Shown: positions 22,261 to 32,095 of the stretch, one piece after another | Layout: each line of letters begins with the position of its first letter | Numbering within the stretch: position 1 is the first letter of the stretch | Origin: Myxococcales bacterium | Lineage (GTDB): Bacteria; Myxococcota_A; Polyangia; Polyangiales; Polyangiaceae | Length of the DNA: 47,863 bases | Reading direction: 5' to 3' | NCBI GenBank assembly: GCA_025354825.1 | Contig: JANXMC010000030.1 | Coordinates: forward strand, 1-47,863 | Program-made: the position numbers and the translations under genes | The notes under the pieces: model-generated | What the model was told of the DNA's origin: nothing | Seen by the model: only the letters and a program-made list of their open reading frames with translations | The model's database searches: none

Positions 22261-24135
22261 ATGGATACGCTCGTTTACGCGCTTCGCTACCATCTCGTTC
22301 CGATCGCGTGGCTTGCGTTCGTCCTCGTGGGTCATTCGGTGGCGTCACGCTTTCTCGCGGCTCCCGACCATCGCGCCTTCGACCGCGCAATGGTTGCCGT
22401 GCTCACGTCGGTCTTGGCTCCTATCGCCATCGTCGGAGCGCTCGCGGCTGTGGGCGCGGCAAGCGCCGTCTCGGTCGCCGTTGCATCGCTCGTCGTCGGG
22501 GCTACCCTCGCGGCGCTCGCCGGGCGTTCGGGGTGCCGTGCCTCGGTCCAGGAGCTTCGGCAAATTGCAAAACGCGCCTTCGGCCAGGGGCGTCGGGCGT
22601 TGGCGACGTGGGTCGCCGTGGCTCTCGCCATCGGCGCTTTCTGCCTCGCCGCCACCTCGAGCTTTCTTCTCGAGCCGTGGGCGTGGGATGCGCTCGGCTA
22701 CCACCTGCCAATCGTTCACACAATCGTCGAAACCGGCTGGAATGCAGCGGTTCCAGGGCACGACGCCTATGTGAACACGTATCCGCGTGCCATCGAGCTG
22801 TTCATGGCGTGGTGGCGGTTCGTCTCCCCCGACGACGCGCTTCTCGACCTCGCCCAAGCGCCCTTCGCGCTCGTCGGCGCGACGGCCGTCGCCGCGTGGT
22901 CGCGTCGCCTCGGAGCGTCACCCGCACGCAGCGTTCTCTTCGGTGCCACGTTCGCGGTGCTCCCCGTCGTCTATTTGCAAATGGCGACGAACTACGTCGA
23001 CATCGCATTTGCAGCGCTCTTTTTGAGTGCCACGTATTTGGCATTCGCACCGCCGAGCTGGCCTATCACGGTTGCCGCGGGGCTCACCTTTGCCGCCTAC
23101 GTTGCGACGAAACCTTCGGGCCCGGCGTCTCTCGCGCTTGTGATGACGACCCTCGCGCTGCGCGTTCGAACGCGCGATCAGGCGCAAAAGCTGGCCGGAA
23201 TCGCGGCCCTAGCGCTCTTGGGAATGGGCTCCTACTTCGATAACTTCCTCACCTACGGAAACCCGATTTGGCCCGTGCGCGTGGCGCTTGGCCCGTTCTC
23301 CCTTCCGGGGTCCGAGACCATGGGCGAGCTCGTTCAAGCGGGAATGCCCGACGCGCTTCGTGGCTTGTCGCCCATGGCGCGCATTCTCGCGTCGTGGACG
23401 ACAGTGCTTGCGCCGTACAATTTCGATATGCGGCTCGGCGGCTTCGGACCCGTGTTCGCCTTCGTGCTTCTCCCGCTCGCGCCGGTCGTCGTCCTTCGCG
23501 CGCGGCGGGTCGATGCTCGCGCCTGGATGGCCGTGGTCGTGATCGCGCCGCTCGTCACGCCGGGGGCGTTCTGGGCGCGCTACACCATCGCGACCGCAGG
23601 TGCGCTCCTCGCCGTCGTCGCCGCCGGAAGTGAGCTCTTTCCGCGGGGATCGAGGCGCATCGTCGACGGCGCCCTCTGCGTCGCTGCGCTAGGCGGGCTC
23701 GTCCTCGCCACGCCGGGGCTCACAGGTGGTGGGCCGAGCCTCGTTGCCCTCGCGAAGATGACACCCGATGCGCGCGCCGACTGCGTGAGCGTCGACGGCT
23801 CGGGCCGCGCTTGGGCCGATGCGCGGCGTCGCGTACGACCGGGCGGTGCCTTTGGCTACGACACCTCCGTGAATCTGTTGGGGCAGGTCTTTCCGCAGAC
23901 CCCGGAGACGCGTGCCCTCCTCGTCCCACCGACCGTCCCCGACGGGGCCGCCCTCGAATCGTGGGTGCGCACCGCGCGCGTCGACGTCGTCGTGCTCGGC
24001 AACGATACGCCGCAGGGGGCTCACGCCCTTCGCACGCACGACCGCTTTCGCACGCTCTTCGCCTGCCCTCTCGATCCGTGCACCGTCTTCGAGGTCGTCG
24101 TCACGAATCGAGCGTCCCTCTCACTTTCTCGATGA
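22261..24135 (+). CDS. Polytopic membrane protein, possibly an ArnT/PMT-like GT-C glycosyltransferase
   Basis: 624 aa with many hydrophobic segments in the first ~450 aa, followed by a soluble C-domain. The GT-C assignment is by architecture only. Confidence 0.6.
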   Translation: MDTLVYALRYHLVPIAWLAFVLVGHSVASRFLAAPDHRAFDRAMVAVLTSVLAPIAIVGALAAVGAASAVSVAVASLVVGATLAALAGRSGCRASVQELRQIAKRAFGQGRRALATWVAVALAIGAFCLAATSSFLLEPWAWDALGYHLPIVHTIVETGWNAAVPGHDAYVNTYPRAIELFMAWWRFVSPDDALLDLAQAPFALVGATAVAAWSRRLGASPARSVLFGATFAVLPVVYLQMATNYVDIAFAALFLSATYLAFAPPSWPITVAAGLTFAAYVATKPSGPASLALVMTTLALRVRTRDQAQKLAGIAALALLGMGSYFDNFLTYGNPIWPVRVALGPFSLPGSETMGELVQAGMPDALRGLSPMARILASWTTVLAPYNFDMRLGGFGPVFAFVLLPLAPVVVLRARRVDARAWMAVVVIAPLVTPGAFWARYTIATAGALLAVVAAGSELFPRGSRRIVDGALCVAALGGLVLATPGLTGGGPSLVALAKMTPDARADCVSVDGSGRAWADARRRVRPGGAFGYDTSVNLLGQVFPQTPETRALLVPPTVPDGAALESWVRTARVDVVVLGNDTPQGAHALRTHDRFRTLFACPLDPCTVFEVVVTNRASLSLSR

Positions 24136-24653
24136 GCGTCGCGGGCGTAATCGTTGCCGCCCACCGCGGCGGCGAGCAGCGAGCTTTTCCGCTCCTGCGC
24201 GCGGAGACGGGCGTTGGCGTAGAGCGACGCGATGTAGCCGTCGTACATCTTGCCGCCGGCCACGAGCTGAAAGCCGAGCTGAACGAGCACGAACGGCGCC
24301 AGCGTTAAGCTCGCGGCGCTCCCCAAGACGACGAGGAGGACGAACATTGGCAGCTCGAAGGCAAGAAGGCTTGCCCGGAGGAGCCAGGGTCGCGGTGCGA
24401 GGAGGTTCGTTAGCCCACCCGCGACGCCGCTCGTGCAGGCGACGGCGAGCCACGGCATCGGGCCATTCACCTGGTGGAGCGCGAGCACGAAGCACGCGAA
24501 CGCGCTCCAAAGCAGGCCTGCGCCGATGCTGAGCGTGGCGAAGACGGCGCGGAGTACCTTGGTCCTGCCACCGACGCAGCGCCTCGACCTGACGTCGAAC
24601 GTGAACCGCGCGCGAACCCTCGCCGAGGGAGACAGGTGCAGCGCGTTCATCAT
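24021..24653 (-). CDS. Small polytopic membrane protein, unknown function
   Basis: Start taken at the ATG-ATG pair (MMNALHL) at 24653. There are four hydrophobic segments. The last ~38 codons overlap the convergent 22261-24135 gene. Confidence 0.55.
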   Translation of the reverse strand: MMNALHLSPSARVRARFTFDVRSRRCVGGRTKVLRAVFATLSIGAGLLWSAFACFVLALHQVNGPMPWLAVACTSGVAGGLTNLLAPRPWLLRASLLAFELPMFVLLVVLGSAASLTLAPFVLVQLGFQLVAGGKMYDGYIASLYANARLRAQERKSSLLAAAVGGNDYARDAHRESERDARFVTTTSKTVHGSRGQAKSVRKRSCVRRA

Positions 24654-24840
24654 GGGGTCCTCATGTGCACCCCCAACGGCCGGTCTTCGCGGAGATGAGC
24701 GCGCGCGCCCGTCCATCTGCGCTTGAGGTTTTCCGCCAGCCGACTCCGCTCGATGTCGTGATCGAAAAACGGCCGCCGAGCAGTTACTTGAGCGCGCACG
24801 CTCTCGTGGCCGATGAAGGTTTGAGTGCGCACGGGAAATT

Positions 24841-26385
24841 GTGGCGAGCTCGTATGAAGTTCGTCCTCGCGCGGCCGTTCACCTTCGCGTGAGCCAACAC
24901 CCTGCAAGCCGCATCATCTTGGTCGATCCGTCCGAGCGCGCGCGAGACGTCCTCGGCAAGCGCCTCCGCGCGCAAGGCTATGTCGTCGACTGTGCAGGCG
25001 ATGCAGCCACCGGCGCGGACATGGCGCTCTCGGCGCCTCCGAGCGTCGTCGTCGCAGACCTCTGGATGCCGAGCATCTCCGGAGTCCAGCTCTGTCGCTT
25101 GCTCCGCTCCGAGCCGGCGACGGCCGATGTCGCCATCATTCTCGCCGGCGACACGGACGAACCGAAGAACCGCTTCCGGGCCGGGCGCGCGGGCGCGAAC
25201 GCCTATGTTCAAAAGCACCGAACGGGAGATCTCCTTCGTGCGATCGGCCAGGCGGTCGGCCCTCCGAAGCCTGAAGACCCGTTCTTCTTGCAGCTCGCCG
25301 AAAGCTCGATCGACATCCGCGATCGGATAGCTCGGCACCTCGACGACGCTCTCTTCGACGCGATCATCGCGTCCGAAGTGCGGGCGCTGGCGACTTGCGG
25401 TGAGCTCGATCGACTCTTCGACCTGTTCACGCAATTTCTCTCCCAGGTAACACAATACCGCTGGGTGGGGCTCTGGGTACTCGGAACGCCCGACAGGTTC
25501 GCGCTCCATCACAGTTCGCTCGGCGGGGGCGTGGCCGAGCGCGAGGCACGCGAGGCTTTGCAGCTCCCGGACTCCAGCCGCCCCACTGTGTCCATCGAAG
25601 ACGAAGACGCGCTTTGCGACCCCCGGTGCGCGCCGGCGATCGTCCGCGCGGTCCCGTTTGGAAACGGTAACATTGCCAAGATTGCTTTCAGTCCGAGTCG
25701 GGTGTCGGACGCCGCCGCGTCTGCAAAGCTCATCTCGCACATCGCCCGCGAGCTCGGGGGGCCCCTCCGAATGGCGATGCTCGTCGAAGAGTCGCAGCGC
25801 CTTGCTTCGAGCGACCCGCTCACGGGGCTGATGAATCGTCGGTCGTTCACGACTTCCATACATGCCGAAATCGAACGCTCGCGACGTTACGGCCATCCGC
25901 TCTCGCTCGCAGTCCTCGATGTCGACCACTTCAAACGAGTGAACGATCGCTACGGGCACGGGGCAGGTGACCGCGTGCTCGCAGCGTTGGGTGGGCACCT
26001 GAGTGGAGACGCTCTCCGTCGCGTCGACTTCGCCGCCCGTTGGGGAGGTGAAGAGTTTGTAATCGCCTATGTGAACACGACCGAAGCGGGCGCGTTGGTG
26101 GCCGCCGAGCGCCTGCGCGCCTCAATCGCGAGTCTCGTCGTCGTCGACGAAAAGGGGGAGGCCCTTCCCGTCACGGCGTCGATCGGCGTGAGCGAGCTTA
26201 GGAGCGGCGATTCGCTCGAGCGCTTGGTCGATCGTGCCGACCGCGCGATGTACGACGCGAAGCTCGCGGGACGAAACCGCGTGCTGCCGACCGGTCCCGA
26301 GCAACTGAGTAGAGCGTCGCGCCCCCCGCGGAGCGTCTCGAGCCCGCATCTCCACGGCCTCGGCGCCGCAAAGCTCGCCTCGTAA
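24841..26385 (+). CDS. Response-regulator diguanylate cyclase (REC-GAF-like-GGDEF) with an intact A-site and I-site
   Basis: REC: ILVDPSE...VVVADLWMPSISG...YVQK. GGDEF: DPLTGLMNRRSF...LDVDHFKRVNDRYGHGAGD...RRVDFAARWGGEEF, with RxxD five residues before GGEEF. An alternative start is GTG 24889. Confidence 0.9.
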   Translation: MASSYEVRPRAAVHLRVSQHPASRIILVDPSERARDVLGKRLRAQGYVVDCAGDAATGADMALSAPPSVVVADLWMPSISGVQLCRLLRSEPATADVAIILAGDTDEPKNRFRAGRAGANAYVQKHRTGDLLRAIGQAVGPPKPEDPFFLQLAESSIDIRDRIARHLDDALFDAIIASEVRALATCGELDRLFDLFTQFLSQVTQYRWVGLWVLGTPDRFALHHSSLGGGVAEREAREALQLPDSSRPTVSIEDEDALCDPRCAPAIVRAVPFGNGNIAKIAFSPSRVSDAAASAKLISHIARELGGPLRMAMLVEESQRLASSDPLTGLMNRRSFTTSIHAEIERSRRYGHPLSLAVLDVDHFKRVNDRYGHGAGDRVLAALGGHLSGDALRRVDFAARWGGEEFVIAYVNTTEAGALVAAERLRASIASLVVVDEKGEALPVTASIGVSELRSGDSLERLVDRADRAMYDAKLAGRNRVLPTGPEQLSRASRPPRSVSSPHLHGLGAAKLAS

Positions 26386-26450
26386 CGCAGAGGGATCATG
26401 AGACTTCGACCTCGGAATGGGCTGGCTTGGCAGCCGAAAGGATCGCTCCC

Positions 26451-26978
26451 ATGCAAATAGGAGAATGGAGTCAACTTCACGACTTCGTCGAGGCGGCCAC
26501 ACGCGTCCTGCTCTCCTCACTAGGGTTGCCGATCGTTTACGTGGGCACAGTGCCGCACCAGTCGTCGGGTTGGACCGGGAGGCTTTCCGTCATCGGTCTG
26601 GGAGGCGAATGCCTGCGTGGCTGTCTCCTTTTGAACATCCCTGACGCGCTCCTCCGTGACACCCACCCCGCTGGCGGTGAAAGCGAAGAGGAGCTTGCCG
26701 ACTGGCTCGCGGAAATGGGCAATCTGATCCTCGGGCAGATTAAACGAGACCTGCTCGCCTATCAGGTCACGATCGAGCTGAGCACGCCCGTTACGCTGTC
26801 GGCGACCGACTTCCGATTCGTTCGATTCGCGAGCACGCCCGTCGTTCACCAATTCACCGTGAACGGGGTGCCGCTCCACGTGGTCTTCGAATCCGTCTGC
26901 AAGGGCGGCGCCCGCCTCGCGGCGGTGGCGGGCGGCGTGAGCGCGCGCGCTGGCGACGTCGTGTTGTTCGAAATATGA
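26451..26978 (+). CDS. cheX: CheX-type CheY-P phosphatase
   Basis: ATG 26451 follows AAAGGA. ELADWLAEMGNLILGQ carries the CheC/CheX ExxN active-site motif, and the size is typical. Confidence 0.7.
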   Translation: MQIGEWSQLHDFVEAATRVLLSSLGLPIVYVGTVPHQSSGWTGRLSVIGLGGECLRGCLLLNIPDALLRDTHPAGGESEEELADWLAEMGNLILGQIKRDLLAYQVTIELSTPVTLSATDFRFVRFASTPVVHQFTVNGVPLHVVFESVCKGGARLAAVAGGVSARAGDVVLFEI

Positions 26979-27004
26979 GCTTGCGGGGCGGAGAGGAGAT
27001 CACG

Positions 27005-27379
27005 ATGGGTAAGAAAATTATCGTTGTCGACGATTCACGAACCGCCCGACAGCAGGTCGCGCAAGCGCTCGAGGCCGCTGGGTACGAGGTGCTCGAGGCG
27101 ATCGACGGGAACGACGGCATTGCCAAGGTCATCGCGCACGAGGACGCCGCTCTCATCGTCTGCGACGTGAACATGCCAAACCTAAATGGCATCGACATGA
27201 TCGAAAAGTTACGTCGGGAAATGCCCCGTCTCCGCGTGCCTATCGTCATGCTCACGACGGAGGCCCACCCCGAGCTGCTCCAGCGCGCGAAGCTCGCCGG
27301 CGCAAAGGGGTGGATTGTGAAACCGTTCAAGCAAGACCTGCTGGTGGCAGCGGTCCGCAAGCTCGTCGGCGACAAATGA
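27005..27379 (+). CDS. cheY: Single-domain CheY-like response regulator
   Basis: GGAGAGGAG RBS, then ATG 27005. KKIIVVDDS...LIVCDVNMPNLNG...MLTTE...GWIVKPF has all the canonical REC residues. Confidence 0.9.
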   Translation: MGKKIIVVDDSRTARQQVAQALEAAGYEVLEAIDGNDGIAKVIAHEDAALIVCDVNMPNLNGIDMIEKLRREMPRLRVPIVMLTTEAHPELLQRAKLAGAKGWIVKPFKQDLLVAAVRKLVGDK

Positions 27380-27975
27380 TTTCGACGGGTGCGAGGACCG
27401 TGCTCCGCGTCCTGCTGGCGCTCTGGTCCCTGGCGCTTCTCGCGACGGGCGCAGCCCTCCTCGCCGGTCACCTCGTCGCGCTGCCGAAGCCCCACTACGA
27501 CGACTCGAGACTCACGTCGACGCTCGCACGCATGCGGAATCACAGACCTTCCGGGCGCGTCGTCGTGATTCACATTCTCGACGTCGACTGCCGCTGCTCC
27601 CAACGGGTCCTCGAACATTTGGTCGCTCGCCGCGCGCTTCCGGGGGTCGAAGAGCGCGTCGTCCTCGTCGGGCCGGAAGGGCTCGAAGGCCCCCGCGTTT
27701 CCTCGTCGGGCTTCGAGCTCGAAGTCGTCACGAGGAGCGGTCTCCTCGCGAGGTATGGAGTGCTCTCTGCACCCGTGATGGTCGTGGCCGATGGGCAATC
27801 ACGCGTTCAGTACATCGGCGGCTATACGCTGCGCAAGCAGGCGACGGCGATGAGAGATGCGGAGATCATCGCGCGAATCGCGCGTGGCGAAGAAGTCGAG
27901 CCGCTCCCGCTTTTCGGATGCGCGGTCGACGCGAAGCTCCGGGAGACCGTCGATCCACTTCGGCTTTTGAATTGA
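27376..27975 (+). CDS. N-terminally membrane-anchored thioredoxin-fold-like protein with a CRCS motif
   Basis: ATG 27376 overlaps the cheY stop (ATGA). TM segment VLRVLLALWSLALLATGAALLAG. VVVIHILDVDCRCSQRVLEHL sits where a Trx-type CxxC would be. The fold assignment is tentative. Confidence 0.55.
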   Translation: MISTGARTVLRVLLALWSLALLATGAALLAGHLVALPKPHYDDSRLTSTLARMRNHRPSGRVVVIHILDVDCRCSQRVLEHLVARRALPGVEERVVLVGPEGLEGPRVSSSGFELEVVTRSGLLARYGVLSAPVMVVADGQSRVQYIGGYTLRKQATAMRDAEIIARIARGEEVEPLPLFGCAVDAKLRETVDPLRLLN

Positions 27976-27997
27976 AGGGGTTGAAGGCGAGGCGAGG

Positions 27998-29950
27998 ATG
28001 ATTTCCAGGTTGTTGACGTTTTTGATCCTACCGCCGCACATATCGGCGTTCGAGCGCAACTACCTCGCGCGCATGAATCGGATCGCCCGCGTCTTCTTTC
28101 TCGCCCACGCTCCTCTGCTCGCGGGCGTCGCCTACCTCTGTCACACGGGCGTTTTAAAAGCTCTCGCGCTCACTTGTCTCATGCTGAGCGGCCCGATGGT
28201 CGCGCCCCTGGCTTTTGAAAACCCGCGGCACATTACGCGCGTCTTCGGCGTCGCAGCCATGGGGCTGGGCGCGCTCCTCGTCCACTTCGGCCAGGGGCCG
28301 ATGCAGATCGAGATGCACTTCTACTTCTTCGTGCTCCTCGGTCTCCTCGTCGTATTCGCCGATCCCGTCGTGATTCTAATCGCGGCTGCGACCGTCGTTC
28401 TCCACCATTTGATTCTCTTCGCGACGCTGCCGCCGAGCCTCTTCAACTACCAGGCGTCCATCTGGTCAGTTGCTGTCCATGCGGTGTTCGTTCTCTTCGA
28501 GTCTGCCGCGGCAGTTTGGGTTTCGCGCACATTCTTCGACAGCGTCCTCGGACTCGAGCACGTTGTGGAGGCGCGCACCTCGGAGCTACAGAGGCAGACC
28601 ACGAGCCTGCGGCTCATGCTCGATAACGTCGGCCAGGGCTTTGTTACCTGTGACCTCCGTGGGGTCCTGTCGACGGAACGGTCGGCAAGTTTTGATCGCT
28701 GGTTCGGCGCGATCTCGCCTGAGATGCGCATCGGGGACTGTCTGCGAACGCTCGACGAGACCGCCGCGCAGGAGCTCGAGATGGGGCTGGAGCAGCTCGC
28801 CGACGACGTGTTGCCCGTCGAGCTCTTGCTGACACAGCTCCCATCACGCATCGCAAACCACTCCCTCGCCCTCGATTTCGACTACAAACCTATTTATACG
28901 GACAACGCGCTCTCTCACGTCCTGGTGATTGTGTCCGACGTCACGTATCGGCTAGAGCGAGAGCGCGCTGAGTCGGAAGCGAAGGAGATGCTTGCGATCT
29001 TCGAAGCGGCCGTCCACGACCGCGCCGGGTTCGTCGATTTCATGAAGGAGGCGAGCGCGCTCGTCGCCGCCGCAACGGCTCCCACGACGCCAATGGAAAC
29101 CGTCAAACGCCATGTCCACACGCTCAAAGGGGCGTGCGGACTCTTGCAACTCACTTCGATGGTCACGTTTTGCCATGAGCTCGAGGAGCGCCTCGCCGAG
29201 GCCACGGAGCTCCCCCTCGCCGAAGAGGTGCGTTTGGTCTCCCGTTGGAGCGCATTCTCGACGAAATTCACCCATATCTTCGGCAGGCTCGAAGAGGTCC
29301 TCCATGTGAGCCGCGCCGAGCTTGCCGACTTGCTCAAGGCGGTCGAGGAGGGCGCCGCCAGCGAAGTCGTCGCCGAGCGGCTGAAGCAGTGGACACTAGA
29401 GCCCACCGCGGTGCGCCTCGAACGGTTCGCCGAACAGGCGCGCGGTATGGCAAGGCGGCTGAACAAAGGGGCCGTCGAGGTCCGCGTCGAACACAACGGC
29501 GTGCGGCTTCCGCGCGCGGCATGGGCGCCGTTCTGGAGCTCCTTCAGTCATGTGGTGCGCAACGCCATCGACCACGGCTTGGAGCTTCCAGGAGAGCGTC
29601 TGGCGCACCGAAAGCCGCCCGCGGGTCGCGTGTCGCTCTCGACCGTAGTGGAGGGCGACGATGTCGTTATCGGGATTGTCGACGACGGCCGCGGAATCAA
29701 CTGGTCGGAAGTGCGCGCCCGCGCAGTCGAGCGGGGGATCTCCGTGCGGACCTCCGACGAGCTCTCGCTGGCGCTCTTTGAAGACGGATTGACGACGCTC
29801 GCGACCCCCACGCACGACTCCGGCCGAGGCGTGGGTTTGGGCGCGGTGCGGGCGATCTGCGAACGAATGGGGGGCCGCGTTCAGATTCAAACCACGTTGG
29901 GCCAGTCGACGCGGGTCGAAATACGTATCCCTCGCCACCACGCTGCCTAA
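27998..29950 (+). CDS. Membrane-integral CheA-like histidine kinase (multi-TM sensor, PAS-like region, HPt, HATPase_c; no CheW-like P5 domain)
   Basis: About 5 N-terminal TM segments. HPt motif KRHVHTLKGACGLL. CheA-type ATPase motifs: HVVRNAIDHGLE, IVDDGRGI, DSGRGVGLGAV. The ORF ends right after the ATPase domain. Confidence 0.85.
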   Translation: MISRLLTFLILPPHISAFERNYLARMNRIARVFFLAHAPLLAGVAYLCHTGVLKALALTCLMLSGPMVAPLAFENPRHITRVFGVAAMGLGALLVHFGQGPMQIEMHFYFFVLLGLLVVFADPVVILIAAATVVLHHLILFATLPPSLFNYQASIWSVAVHAVFVLFESAAAVWVSRTFFDSVLGLEHVVEARTSELQRQTTSLRLMLDNVGQGFVTCDLRGVLSTERSASFDRWFGAISPEMRIGDCLRTLDETAAQELEMGLEQLADDVLPVELLLTQLPSRIANHSLALDFDYKPIYTDNALSHVLVIVSDVTYRLERERAESEAKEMLAIFEAAVHDRAGFVDFMKEASALVAAATAPTTPMETVKRHVHTLKGACGLLQLTSMVTFCHELEERLAEATELPLAEEVRLVSRWSAFSTKFTHIFGRLEEVLHVSRAELADLLKAVEEGAASEVVAERLKQWTLEPTAVRLERFAEQARGMARRLNKGAVEVRVEHNGVRLPRAAWAPFWSSFSHVVRNAIDHGLELPGERLAHRKPPAGRVSLSTVVEGDDVVIGIVDDGRGINWSEVRARAVERGISVRTSDELSLALFEDGLTTLATPTHDSGRGVGLGAVRAICERMGGRVQIQTTLGQSTRVEIRIPRHHAA

Positions 29951-30046
29951 TTCGGCGCGCGAGATGGCGTCGACCCTCCAGGGCCTCTCGCAAGCCAAGT
30001 GACGAAATGCCCTCAAGTTGTGTTGGGGCGTCCGTTCTGGCGAGGT

Positions 30047-31015
30047 ATGAAGTTGCTCATCGCGCTGGAGGACGCCATCCTCGCAAGGCACGCAAGCTCT
30101 CACCTTTCGTCGTGCGGCCACGACGTCACGGTCGCTGCCGATGTCGACGACGCTTTGGAGCTCCTCGCGTCGGGGTTGCCGCCAAGCGTGATGCTCGTGG
30201 GTGGCTCCTGCGCGCGCGTTTCGCTCCTGTTGGCGACCTGCGCCGAGCTGCCGCCCGCGCGCCGCCCCTATGTCATCCTTCATGGCCAAGGGCTCGACGC
30301 CGATGACCCGCTCGGGCACGCCGCGGCGGACGTCGACGACTTCCTGGTCGGATCATGCTCGGGGCGCGAGATGGAAGCGCGCGTCAGGCTCGCAACGCGA
30401 ATCATGGCTCTCGAGTCCCAGGCGGCCTCGGCGCGCGATTGGCTCGTGTTTGCCGCAACCCACGACGCCGTCACCGGCGCGCTCACGCGGAGCGCGGGGC
30501 TCGACGCACTCGACCGCGAGCTCGCACGCGCCGCACGCGAGACGAGCAGCGTCGGCATCGCGGCCATCGAAGTACGCGGCGCGATTGCGATTCGGGACGA
30601 GCACGGAACCGTGGCGTACGATCTCCTGCTGCAGGGGATCGCGTGCCGCGTCCGCGACGCCCTGCGTACCTACGACATCCTCGCGCGCGCGAGCGCCGAG
30701 TCGCTCTTCGCCGTCCTTCCGGGGGTCGACGCATCGTCGGCGGAAAGCGTTGCCTCGCGGCTTCGCGATTGTATCGATGGCACGCCTTTCGACGTCCACG
30801 TCGCGTCGGTGAGCGTGACCTGCGCGATCGCGATTACGACGGCTGTCGGCGACGCAGACGACGAATCGACGGCGCTCCTCGCGCGCGCGGAGGCGTCGAT
30901 CCCCGCTGTCATCGACGCCGCCCGGCTGCCGTCGCGTCCGCGGCTCCGCGCGAGCATTCGTGTGAGGGGGTCCGCCTATCCGACGATCCGCGTGAAACGC
31001 GGCCTCCTCTCCTAG
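30047..31015 (+). CDS. Pseudo-receiver plus degenerate GGDEF protein (candidate c-di-GMP effector)
   Basis: The REC-like N-domain has Gly where the phospho-acceptor Asp should be (SVMLVGGS). The GGDEF-like domain begins HDAVTGALTRSAG and has AESLF in place of GGEEF. An RxxD (RTYD) is retained just upstream. Confidence 0.75.
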   Translation: MKLLIALEDAILARHASSHLSSCGHDVTVAADVDDALELLASGLPPSVMLVGGSCARVSLLLATCAELPPARRPYVILHGQGLDADDPLGHAAADVDDFLVGSCSGREMEARVRLATRIMALESQAASARDWLVFAATHDAVTGALTRSAGLDALDRELARAARETSSVGIAAIEVRGAIAIRDEHGTVAYDLLLQGIACRVRDALRTYDILARASAESLFAVLPGVDASSAESVASRLRDCIDGTPFDVHVASVSVTCAIAITTAVGDADDESTALLARAEASIPAVIDAARLPSRPRLRASIRVRGSAYPTIRVKRGLLS

Positions 31016-31463: not shown

Positions 31464-31799
31464 ATGCCCAACACCGACCGATCCGAAGCTCGAATGCCAC
31501 ACCGCGCCGCGCCGTCGACCCGGGCACCCGTGGGCCTCGGGGCGCGCGTCCGCGACTCTCTCCTCCCTCTCGCTGAGCTGAGAACCTCCGGCCGCATTGC
31601 CCACGAGATGAACAATCTCATTGCCGTCATTTTGGGATATACCGACCTGCTCCTCGCCGACATGGAATCCGAGGAAAGCGGAATTCAGGCAGATCTCACG
31701 GAGGTTCGTATCGCCGCGATCAGGGCACGCGAGCTCACGAAGGAGCTCGCGGAGATGGACGAACGGGAGCGGCGCAGTCTGCCTAGGCGGCAGGCGTGA
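31464..31799 (+). CDS. HisKA-only protein (orphan dimerisation/phospho-acceptor domain), probably a kinase remnant
   Basis: Coding periodicity confirmed in 31560-31620. The H-box is RIAHEMNNLIAVILGYTDLL. No ATPase domain follows. Confidence 0.6.
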   Translation: MPNTDRSEARMPHRAAPSTRAPVGLGARVRDSLLPLAELRTSGRIAHEMNNLIAVILGYTDLLLADMESEESGIQADLTEVRIAAIRARELTKELAEMDERERRSLPRRQA

Positions 31800-31934
31800 G
31801 CCGCGAGCTCGTCGTCATGGTATTTGGCTCTGGCAATCTCGGATGCGAATCCAGATTTGGCCATCGACGCGTTTGACCCCGGCTTCGACGACGTCGTCCG
31901 AAAGCCTTTCGAGCTCTCGGGCCTTAAGCGCTCG
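31800..31934 (+). pseudogene. C-terminal receiver-domain remnant, in the same frame as the HisKA ORF beyond its TGA
   Basis: LALAISDANPDLAIDAFDPGFDDVVRKPFELSGLKRS matches the REC beta4-alpha4-beta5-alpha5 pattern (..GaDDyv.KPF....L). It starts 8 codons after the TGA at 31797-31799, in frame. Confidence 0.4.
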
Positions 31935-31969
31935 AGGGCGCGCCGTCGCTCGATCACGTCGGCTGCGCG

Positions 31970-32095
31970 CGGCATGCCGATCTGCCCGATGTCGTGCAGG
32001 TACGCGACGAGCTCGACGTCGAGAACGCGCCCCGGGGAGAGGCCCATCTTCCGCGCCAAGTGCCTGGCCCATCCTGAGCGTGGGCTGTCGTTCCG
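31970..32095 (-). pseudogene. HD-GYP domain core fragment (frame-broken, truncated at both ends)
   Basis: HLARKMGLSPGRVLDVELVAYLHDIGQIGMP matches the HD-GYP pattern lA..lGls......l..aalLHDIGKi.iP. A TLRMGQA piece upstream lies in a different frame, and a stop lies about 20 codons upstream. Confidence 0.4.

Follow-up and report, generated by a model that had tools for sequence, protein, structure and literature searches.

Class III histidine kinases (HKIII) reportedly consist of an N-terminal sensor, a histidine phosphotransfer (HPt) domain, and a CheA-like ATPase, lack a CheW-like domain and any recognisable dimerisation domain, and work with CheX and a single-domain response regulator. Many, not all, of these systems are said to include an unorthodox soluble chemoreceptor, and pilT is said to be present in the genome. 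Control of type IV pilus motility has reportedly been proposed as their function. To our knowledge, the class is known from comparative genomics only, and we are aware of no bench experiment on any of its members. Here we describe a six-gene locus of a Myxococcales bacterium that fits this description. It occupies positions 24841..31015 of a 47,863-bp stretch of DNA (contig JANXMC010000030.1), hereafter called the window, which is the complete contig C781 of a 9.0-Mb draft genome in 859 contigs and has a G+C content of approximately 66%. With a probability of roughly 0.7, the locus encodes an HKIII signalling module with its own membrane sensor, a thioredoxin-fold co-sensor, a CheY/CheX relay, and a likely output in cyclic di-GMP (c-di-GMP). 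The class was described by Adebali, Petukh, Reznik, Tishkov, Upadhyay & Zhulin (2017, J Bacteriol 199:e00218-17), whose work is referenced and paraphrased, including pilT, in the excerpt of PMC6501615 used here.

The genes of the locus, designated A to F, and the domains of kinase E are as follows.

24841..26385, plus strand: A, response-regulator diguanylate cyclase (open reading frame and Pfam)
26427..26978, plus strand: B, CheX-type phosphatase of phosphorylated CheY (CheY-P) (open reading frame and Pfam)
27005..27379, plus strand: C, single-domain CheY-like response regulator (open reading frame and Pfam)
27376..27975, plus strand: D, membrane-anchored, probably periplasmic, thioredoxin-fold protein (AlphaFold and Foldseek)
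27998..28576, plus strand: E residues 1-193, six-helix membrane sensor domain (alignments A1 and A4)
28634..28939, plus strand: E residues 213-314, PAS-like domain (AlphaFold secondary structure and Foldseek)
28943..29281, plus strand: E residues 316-428, HPt (CheA P1-like) domain (Pfam Hpt, 38 bits)
29396..29950, plus strand: E residues 467-650, CheA-type catalytic domain, P4 (phmmer search of the Protein Data Bank (PDB), Foldseek, and NCBIfam)
30047..31015, plus strand: F, doubly degenerate REC-GGDEF protein (Pfam GGDEF, 55 bits, and motifs)

The locus agrees with HKIII systems in most respects. The window kinase carries its own six-transmembrane-helix (6TM) and PAS-like domains N-terminal to the HPt domain and the CheA-like ATPase. 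According to Pfam it has neither a HisKA nor an H-kinase_dim domain, it lacks a CheW-like domain, and short P3-like helices are present at the level of the fold. Genes for CheY and CheX adjoin that of the kinase, and pilT is present in the genome, where nine TIGR01420 matches exceed the cut-off, a weak test in a myxobacterium. The soluble chemoreceptor is found in relatives only (27 of the 81 loci surveyed below), and not in the window, which is the whole contig. The locus differs from the described systems in that its kinase subfamily, spread over at least six phyla, has a 6TM domain with conserved His and Glu residues and an almost obligatory thioredoxin-fold partner, and in that a myxobacterial clade has a cyclase composed of a receiver and a GGDEF domain (REC-GGDEF) where other loci have the soluble chemoreceptor. 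Because the locus fits the HKIII description, its receptor-free design is already known, and the receptor-free system of the original prediction falls within a class described in 2017.

The Wsp system of Pseudomonas is composed of the methyl-accepting chemotaxis protein (MCP) WspA, the CheW proteins WspB and WspD, the CheA-REC protein WspE, WspC and WspF, which are CheR and CheB, and the REC-GGDEF protein WspR. Both systems link a CheA-type kinase to a receiver-GGDEF cyclase, and the sequence profile of A matches WspR structures 3bre and 3i5a. Unlike Wsp, the contig has no genes for MCP, CheW, CheR, or CheB, and the window kinase lacks P5 and a fused receiver, has its input built in, and is accompanied by separate CheY and CheX proteins.

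Structure of the kinase

The 650-residue kinase was modelled by AlphaFold with a mean predicted local distance difference test (pLDDT) score of 82. The model contains, in order, six membrane helices (residues ~17-178), a long helix, a PAS-like domain (213-314), an HPt bundle (316-428), two short helices (439-464), and the catalytic domain (467-650). Pfam identifies Hpt (38 bits) and HATPase_c (58 bits) in the protein, and gives no match there for CheW-like, H-kinase_dim, or receiver domains. The HPt motif reads H374-T-L-K-G, in which H374, T375, K377, and G378 are invariant in alignment A1; the codon of His374 is at 29117-29119. In the PAS-like region the model has five strands flanked by helices, and LOV/PAS histidine kinases are among the structures with which Foldseek aligns the model. 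PAS_4 is among the precomputed annotations of two kinase homologues, and the corresponding region of the window kinase has no Pfam match.

All matches of the catalytic domain in a phmmer search of the PDB are CheA P4 domains (E = 1.7e-26), and Foldseek superimposes it on CheA P4 structures with TM-scores of 0.81-0.88. The P3P4 structure 4xiv is also among the Foldseek matches of the model, which has two short P3-like helices at residues 439-464. NCBIfam CheA models cover residues 469-646 only. The kinase ends at residue 650, directly after P4, and has neither P2 nor P5; the family PF01584 has no match on the contig. Because P5 is missing, the kinase cannot dock to CheW/MCP arrays in the known way. 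The description of E as a CheA-like kinase is apt for its CheA-type HPt and P4 domains. The core domains P1, P3, P4, and P5 of CheA always co-occur, according to the excerpt of Berry, Andrianova & Zhulin (2023, PMC10542144) used here. Judged by its predicted domains, the window kinase is not a CheA by this four-core-domain criterion.

More than 400 full-length homologues of the kinase have sequence identities of 43-54%, and its nearest relatives come from metagenome-assembled genomes of Myxococcota. Neither a second copy of the kinase family nor an MCP-like partner was found elsewhere in the window's genome, where the matches are at the level of CheA P4 only. One candidate for a further family member, a locus on contig C530, was rejected as it matches at the HPt and P4 levels only. 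In related genomes of the same family or order (G001-G040), as many as five or six kinases per genome match residues ~185-647 (PAS-HPt-P4) at 34-41% identity. The N-termini of these kinases are different ones, and their open frames span 630-1956 aa. A single kinase of this kind is encoded in the genome of the window.

The six-helix membrane sensor domain

In all types of protein that contain the 6TM domain, residues Gly100, Glu105, His107, Phe108, Phe111, His137, Tyr151, and His161 are invariant (alignments A1 and A4), with His96 and His136 retained in 90% or more. Going by where the helices lie in the model, these conserved residues are inferred to sit in the outer third of the membrane.

A search with the first 193 residues of the kinase matched 1662 cluster representatives. 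Besides the HPt kinases, the matches include proteins of 420-575 residues, and all eight of those tested carry an MCP signalling domain; another match is a HisKA-HATPase-REC hybrid kinase. A second search, seeded with an MCP-type 6TM sequence, retrieved 46 MCPs and four HPt kinases. Fusion to three outputs, namely MCPs, a class I kinase, and class III kinases, is the signature of an input domain. The prediction that the sensor is built into the kinase is borne out by this modular domain, which heads MCPs and a HisKA-type hybrid kinase as well.

Pfam searches at E = 10 with three versions of the 6TM domain gave nothing meaningful, and a PDB sequence search with it gave no match; assignment to MHYT or another known membrane sensor family is unsupported by these searches. 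No description of the domain was found in a literature search. An origin from cytochrome oxidase was also considered, owing to what is published on HtrVIII and to the COX3 and COX4_pro genes beside one 6TM chemoreceptor. It is not supported: when the domain was compared by hhalign with the two COX1 proteins encoded in the genome, the probabilities were below 1%. A described protein of similar layout is HtrVIII of Halobacterium salinarum, a six-transmembrane aerotaxis transducer for which similarity to COX1 has been claimed (Brooun et al. 1998, as given in the excerpt of PMC13401364 used here). By description, the MCP-type 6TM relatives resemble HtrVIII in having a six-helix, His-bearing input, no large periplasmic domain, and an MCP signalling domain; they differ from it in that the 6TM domain has no profile similarity to cytochrome oxidase subunit I.

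The thioredoxin-fold partner

Protein D is predicted to have a thioredoxin fold with one N-terminal membrane helix (pLDDT 92.6). Foldseek matches it to TlpA/ResA/CcmG-type proteins with E-values from 5e-7 to 1e-3, and with a probability of 1.00 at E = 5e-7. Residues invariant among the 35 sequences of alignment A2 are Trp17, His32, His66, Cys72-x-Cys74, Pro133, a Y-x-G-G-Y motif, and Cys182. Like TlpA, ResA, and CcmG, D combines a membrane anchor with a thioredoxin fold, with a cysteine pair at the site of CxxC and a proline at the position of the cis-proline. It differs from them and from Sco proteins in that its motif is CxC (C72-x-C74-S) instead of CxxC or the CxxxC of Sco, and in the additional invariant residues Cys182, His32, and His66. 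Similarity of D to the family DUF6436 is below threshold (21.1 bits, and 19.3 bits in the genome search, with a cut-off of 27.3), and hhalign comparison of D with a genuine DUF6436 protein gives a probability of 76%. No characterised function of DUF6436 was found in a literature search.

Homologues of D are also encoded next to 6TM chemoreceptors. One (hhalign probability 99.9%) lies beside such a receptor in L097, a complete Che cluster, further ones are in L098-L100 and L106, and in L107 a genuine DUF6436 protein follows the 6TM chemoreceptor. In total, D or DUF6436 homologues are directly adjacent to four of the eight non-HKIII 6TM proteins examined, and the idea that all 6TM proteins require D as a partner was therefore rejected. 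D accompanies 6TM in kinase and chemoreceptor contexts, and not always, as would be expected if it were a co-sensor of an input domain or helped in its maturation. In the gammaproteobacterial locus L107 (3001-6026), the 6TM chemoreceptor gene and the overlapping DUF6436 gene are followed by stand-alone COX3 and COX4_pro genes, and no COX1 or COX2 gene is present within the 3 kb examined.

Neighbourhood of the kinase across 81 loci

The gene neighbourhood was surveyed in the window and 80 related loci from single-species genomes, and included all open reading frames up to 6 kb from the kinase, which were called by us and clustered using BLAST. The loci belong to Myxococcota, Planctomycetota (including Kuenenia and cultured Pirellulaceae), Nitrospirota, Pseudomonadota (including Burkholderiales), Gemmatimonadota, and Acidobacteriota, and the kinase family is thus spread over at least six phyla. 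Many of the 80 related loci are located on contigs of 0.1-8 Mb.

Protein D is the most faithful neighbour of the kinase. It adjoins the kinase in 72 of the 81 loci; in 69 the two genes share a strand, and the median offset relative to the kinase start is about -16 nt. This sustains the claim that a membrane thioredoxin-fold protein is part of the system. CheY is encoded near the kinase in 54 loci and CheX in 34. A soluble MCPsignal protein of ~310 residues, which has no membrane segment and matches PF00015 above the cut-off (45-48 bits), is present in 27 loci. The REC-GGDEF cyclase occurs in ten loci, all from Myxococcota, and Sco1/SenC (PF02630, 104 bits) in nine, where its gene usually overlaps the start of D. 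A gene order found in multiple phyla is kinase-CheY-MCP-like-CheX-Sco1-D. No CheW gene is present among the 25 most widespread neighbour clusters or in the gene maps of the 80 related loci, and the neighbour clusters contain no transporter or oxidase genes conserved beside the module.

The cyclase and the MCP-like protein never occur together (0 of 81 loci), and 44 loci have neither. This mutual exclusivity suggests that the two are alternative partners in the same slot. In a kinase tree from a quick search, with support from the Shimodaira-Hasegawa-like approximate likelihood ratio test (SH-aLRT) only, the window shares a clade (SH-aLRT 92) with L017, L001, and L020, each of which has the cyclase. 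The remaining cyclase-linked loci form a second Polyangiaceae clade and two separate positions, and the association with the cyclase is therefore recurrent in Myxococcota and absent elsewhere. Although gene order is rearranged among the cyclase loci, in no locus of the window's clade is the cyclase separated from CheX-CheY. Cyclases of the A type also abut HKIII-type kinases in the related genomes G010, G018, and G020; the kinase of G020 is a paralogue with a different N-terminus.

Seen across relatives, the predicted six-gene set thus holds in part: D, CheY, and CheX recur, the cyclase is limited to some Myxococcota, and F is never found beside the kinase. Similarly, the absence of an MCP is true of the window and does not extend to the family as a general trait, given the soluble MCPsignal protein of other loci. 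The absence is a state of the lineage.

CheX, CheY, and the soluble MCP-like protein

The CheX protein scores 39 bits in Pfam (cut-off 27), and has the active-site motif E-M-G-N followed by a proline 22 residues later. The corresponding motif E-x2-N-x(18-24)-P is present in all 34 members of the CheX family, and the predicted ExxN signature of CheX can be read in the translation. CheY matches Response_reg with 91 bits, and all its canonical residues are present (VVDD, CDVNMP, MLTTE, and VKPF). It is 50-64% identical to the CheY proteins of modules from other phyla.

CheX and the soluble MCP-like protein have in common a C-terminal peptide, [EA]G[DE]-h-h-[LM]F-COOH, in loci L002-L080. An ending of a hydrophobic residue and Phe is present in 29 of 34 CheX and 25 of 27 MCP-like proteins. 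The window CheX ends in AGDVVLFEI (26955-26978), that is, AGDVVLF with two extra residues. The common peptide suggests a shared docking site on CheY or the kinase.

After the MCP hairpin, 23 of the 27 soluble MCP-like proteins contain the motif S-H-L-[QA]-[FY]-Q-D-x3-Q (e.g. L054:9398-10309 and L027:9394-10407). The active site of CheZ has the sequence D-x3-Q. Because [FY]QDxxxQ resembles this site, a CheZ-like domain was considered for these proteins; as Pfam gives no match to CheZ, the resemblance is a lead only.

The cyclase and the degenerate GGDEF protein

Cyclase A is composed of a receiver (Response_reg, 52 bits), a middle domain of ~170 aa, and a GGDEF domain (146 bits). The prediction of a REC-GAF-GGDEF protein stands for the two terminal domains. 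The middle has no Pfam match even at E = 10 and no PDB profile match, and its similarity to GAF is confined to the last ~45 residues, which align with the final part of a GAF domain annotated by Pfam; a GAF identity is thus only partly supported, and the domain is best labelled GAF-like, unconfirmed. The motif RRVD-FAARW-GGEEF, read directly from the translation, contains the predicted GGEEF active site with an RxxD inhibitory site (I-site) five residues upstream. Residues R393, D396, and G402-G403-E404-E405 are invariant in the orthologues.

PleD of Caulobacter is a REC-REC-GGDEF cyclase, and PopA and PelD are c-di-GMP receptors with degenerate GGDEF domains. The best PDB profile matches of A are PleD (E = 2e-63), with which it has in common GGEEF and an RxxD five residues upstream, and WspR. 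Where PleD has its second receiver, A has an unassigned middle domain, and its single receiver is atypical. Phosphorylatable receivers have conserved residues Asp12, Asp13, Asp57, Thr/Ser87, and Lys109 in CheY numbering. In an alignment of eight orthologues of A, Asp12 and Asp57 have invariant counterparts, the latter being the acceptor Asp73; Asp13 is replaced by Pro, Ser, or Val and Thr87 by Ala, Cys, or Arg, and Lys109 is kept in six of the eight. Since Asp73 is kept but the equivalents of Asp13 and Thr87 are missing, direct phosphorylation of A is plausible and not assured. The genome of the window encodes a second REC-GGDEF cyclase of the A type (G000:C684:1494-2864), 46% identical over residues 22-482, and there is no class III kinase on its contig.

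Protein F matches GGDEF with 55 bits. Its translation shows RTYD-x5-SAESL, in which RxxD is kept and GGDEF is replaced, and a glycine at the phospho-acceptor position (SVMLVGGS), in keeping with its prediction as a pseudo-REC/degenerate GGDEF protein. The degenerate active site and the retained RxxD resemble PopA-type receptors, a likeness that is one of sequence only, and F may bind c-di-GMP. It differs from PopA and PelD in being an orphan without conserved context: among 5.8 billion proteins it has one homologue at 47% identity, the remaining matches are at most 36% identical, and F adjoins the kinase in none of the 80 related loci. F as a conserved module member was consequently rejected. 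Nothing was found that ties it to the module, and its proposed role as the c-di-GMP reader of the module is speculation.

Gene boundaries and absence of receptor genes

The six genes are consecutive on the plus strand with short or overlapping junctions, as predicted. The gap between A and CheX is 41 nt. The TGA stop codon of CheX is at 26976-26978, and the ATG of CheY at 27005 lies 26 nt further, with the Shine-Dalgarno-like sequence GGAGAGGAG in between. The stop codon of CheY overlaps the start of D in ATGA at 27376-27379, and a gap of 22 nt separates D from the ATG of the kinase at 27998. From the kinase stop at 29950, F starts after 48 nt (GTG 29999) or 96 nt (ATG 30047). A consensus scan found only two terminator-like sites, both weak, in the interior of the kinase gene and at the 3' end of D; shuffled sequences gave more. 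The Pfam and NCBIfam annotation agrees with the earlier calls of CheX, CheY, CheA-like HPt/ATPase, and GGDEF domains.

In profile searches of the whole genome, all matches to CheW, MCPsignal, CheR, and CheB are on contigs other than C781. This agrees with the stated absence of MCP, CheW, CheB, and CheR from the window; the searches did not include CheC and CheD, for which the same had been stated. The flanks of the module on the contig, 25 kb upstream and 17 kb downstream, contain no Che receptor gene.

Proposed mechanism and alternatives

As an HKIII module, the locus would operate in the following way. The Glu/His cluster of the 6TM domain near the outer membrane face would work with D to detect a cue that is probably periplasmic redox or metal. 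The signal would pass through the last membrane helix and the PAS-like domain to the CheA-type core, where the P4 ATPase would phosphorylate His374 of the HPt domain. The phosphoryl group would then be transferred to CheY and removed by CheX. In the clade of the window, the REC-GGDEF cyclase would act in place of the soluble MCP-like partner of other phyla, and c-di-GMP would change either through phosphorylation of the atypical receiver of the cyclase or through CheY-P. Because a cyclase with an intact active site and I-site appears to replace the MCP-like partner, a change in c-di-GMP synthesis is the most likely output.

Several observations weigh against this reading. The assignment to HKIII is by description of the class only, in part as given in one citing paper (PMC6501615). 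No cofactor or ligand can be assigned to the 6TM domain, which is similar neither to COX1 nor to Pfam families, and four of the eight non-HKIII 6TM proteins examined have no D beside them. Just ten of the 81 loci have the cyclase, and A-type cyclases also occur away from such kinases. The receiver of the cyclase, lacking the equivalents of CheY Asp13 and Thr87, may not be phosphorylated.

In the main alternative, the conserved module would comprise D, the kinase, CheY, and CheX only, its output would be other than c-di-GMP (e.g. type IV pilus motility), and A and F would be mere neighbours. The restricted occurrence of the cyclase and its atypical receiver, the absence of F from the other loci, and the 44 loci with neither cyclase nor MCP-like protein are in line with such a reduced module. 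The unusual conservation of CheY across phyla suggests a conserved downstream target, and nine pilT-family genes above the cut-off are available in the genome. However, the cyclase remains contiguous with CheX-CheY throughout the clade of the window despite the rearranged order, cyclases of its type are likewise found directly beside an HKIII paralogue whose sensor is a different one, and the cyclase and the MCP-like protein exclude each other as expected of alternative partners in one slot. We regard this alternative as unlikely.

Far less probable is that D and the 6TM domain form a device for maturation or homeostasis, such as copper handling or disulfide exchange, and that the kinase reports its assembly status only. 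The TlpA/ResA/CcmG-like fold of D with invariant Cys and His residues, the translational coupling of Sco1/SenC to D in nine loci, and the 6TM chemoreceptor gene beside DUF6436, COX3, and COX4_pro genes could be read in this way; however, fusion of the 6TM domain to MCP, class I, and class III kinase outputs is the signature of an input domain, and no transporter or oxidase genes are conserved beside the module. That E is an ordinary chemotaxis CheA that uses MCPs and CheW encoded elsewhere, and looks receptor-free owing to assembly fragmentation, is similarly improbable: the genome is a draft of 859 contigs with CheW, MCP, CheR, and CheB genes on other contigs, but the kinase stops after P4 without a CheW-like P5, has its own 6TM and PAS input domains, belongs to a family with no CheW in the neighbour clusters and maps of 80 loci, many on contigs of 0.1-8 Mb, and has no Che receptor gene within 25 kb upstream and 17 kb downstream.

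Sequences flanking the module

Upstream of the module, the genes at 22261-24135 (plus strand) and 24021-24716 (minus strand) encode predicted multi-pass membrane proteins of 624 and 231 aa, respectively, without a Pfam match. Directly 3' of F, the segment 31191-32175 contains apparent remnants of signalling genes on both strands. These include a short open reading frame with a weak HisKA match only (19.5 bits), another with a reading that resembles the tail of a receiver, and a minus-strand open reading frame (31685-32059) that contains the HD-GYP-like sequence LHDIGQIGMP.

Implications for class III histidine kinases

Three features of the locus and its relatives may be new: an unannotated 6TM domain common to three classes of signalling protein, a thioredoxin-fold partner of this domain in both kinase and chemoreceptor contexts, and, in a myxobacterial clade, a diguanylate cyclase where other loci have a soluble chemoreceptor. 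The input unit is sharply defined: four invariant polar residues mark its 6TM domain, and three invariant cysteines its small thioredoxin-fold partner. Since this unit also serves classical chemotaxis pathways elsewhere, its signal could be sought by chemotaxis as well as kinase assays.

We tentatively raise the possibility, suggested by the conserved residues and gene neighbours and still doubtful, that the 6TM domain and D constitute an undescribed cofactor-based membrane sensor. D, and Sco1 where present, would load or redox-cycle a metal, most plausibly copper, in a three-His-one-Glu cluster, and what the unit reports would be a redox, copper, or small-gas signal from the periplasm. The unit would be plugged into chemoreceptors and classical and class III kinases in at least six phyla, and into c-di-GMP synthesis in one myxobacterial clade. 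If true, the few known kinds of intramembrane cofactor sensor would be joined by a new family.

The exclusivity of chemoreceptor and cyclase offers a testable view of the HKIII output slot, and the C-terminal peptide that the soluble chemoreceptor has in common with CheX suggests that both dock at one site. The locus thus provides three handles on class III histidine kinases: the input unit, the output slot, and the docking peptide.

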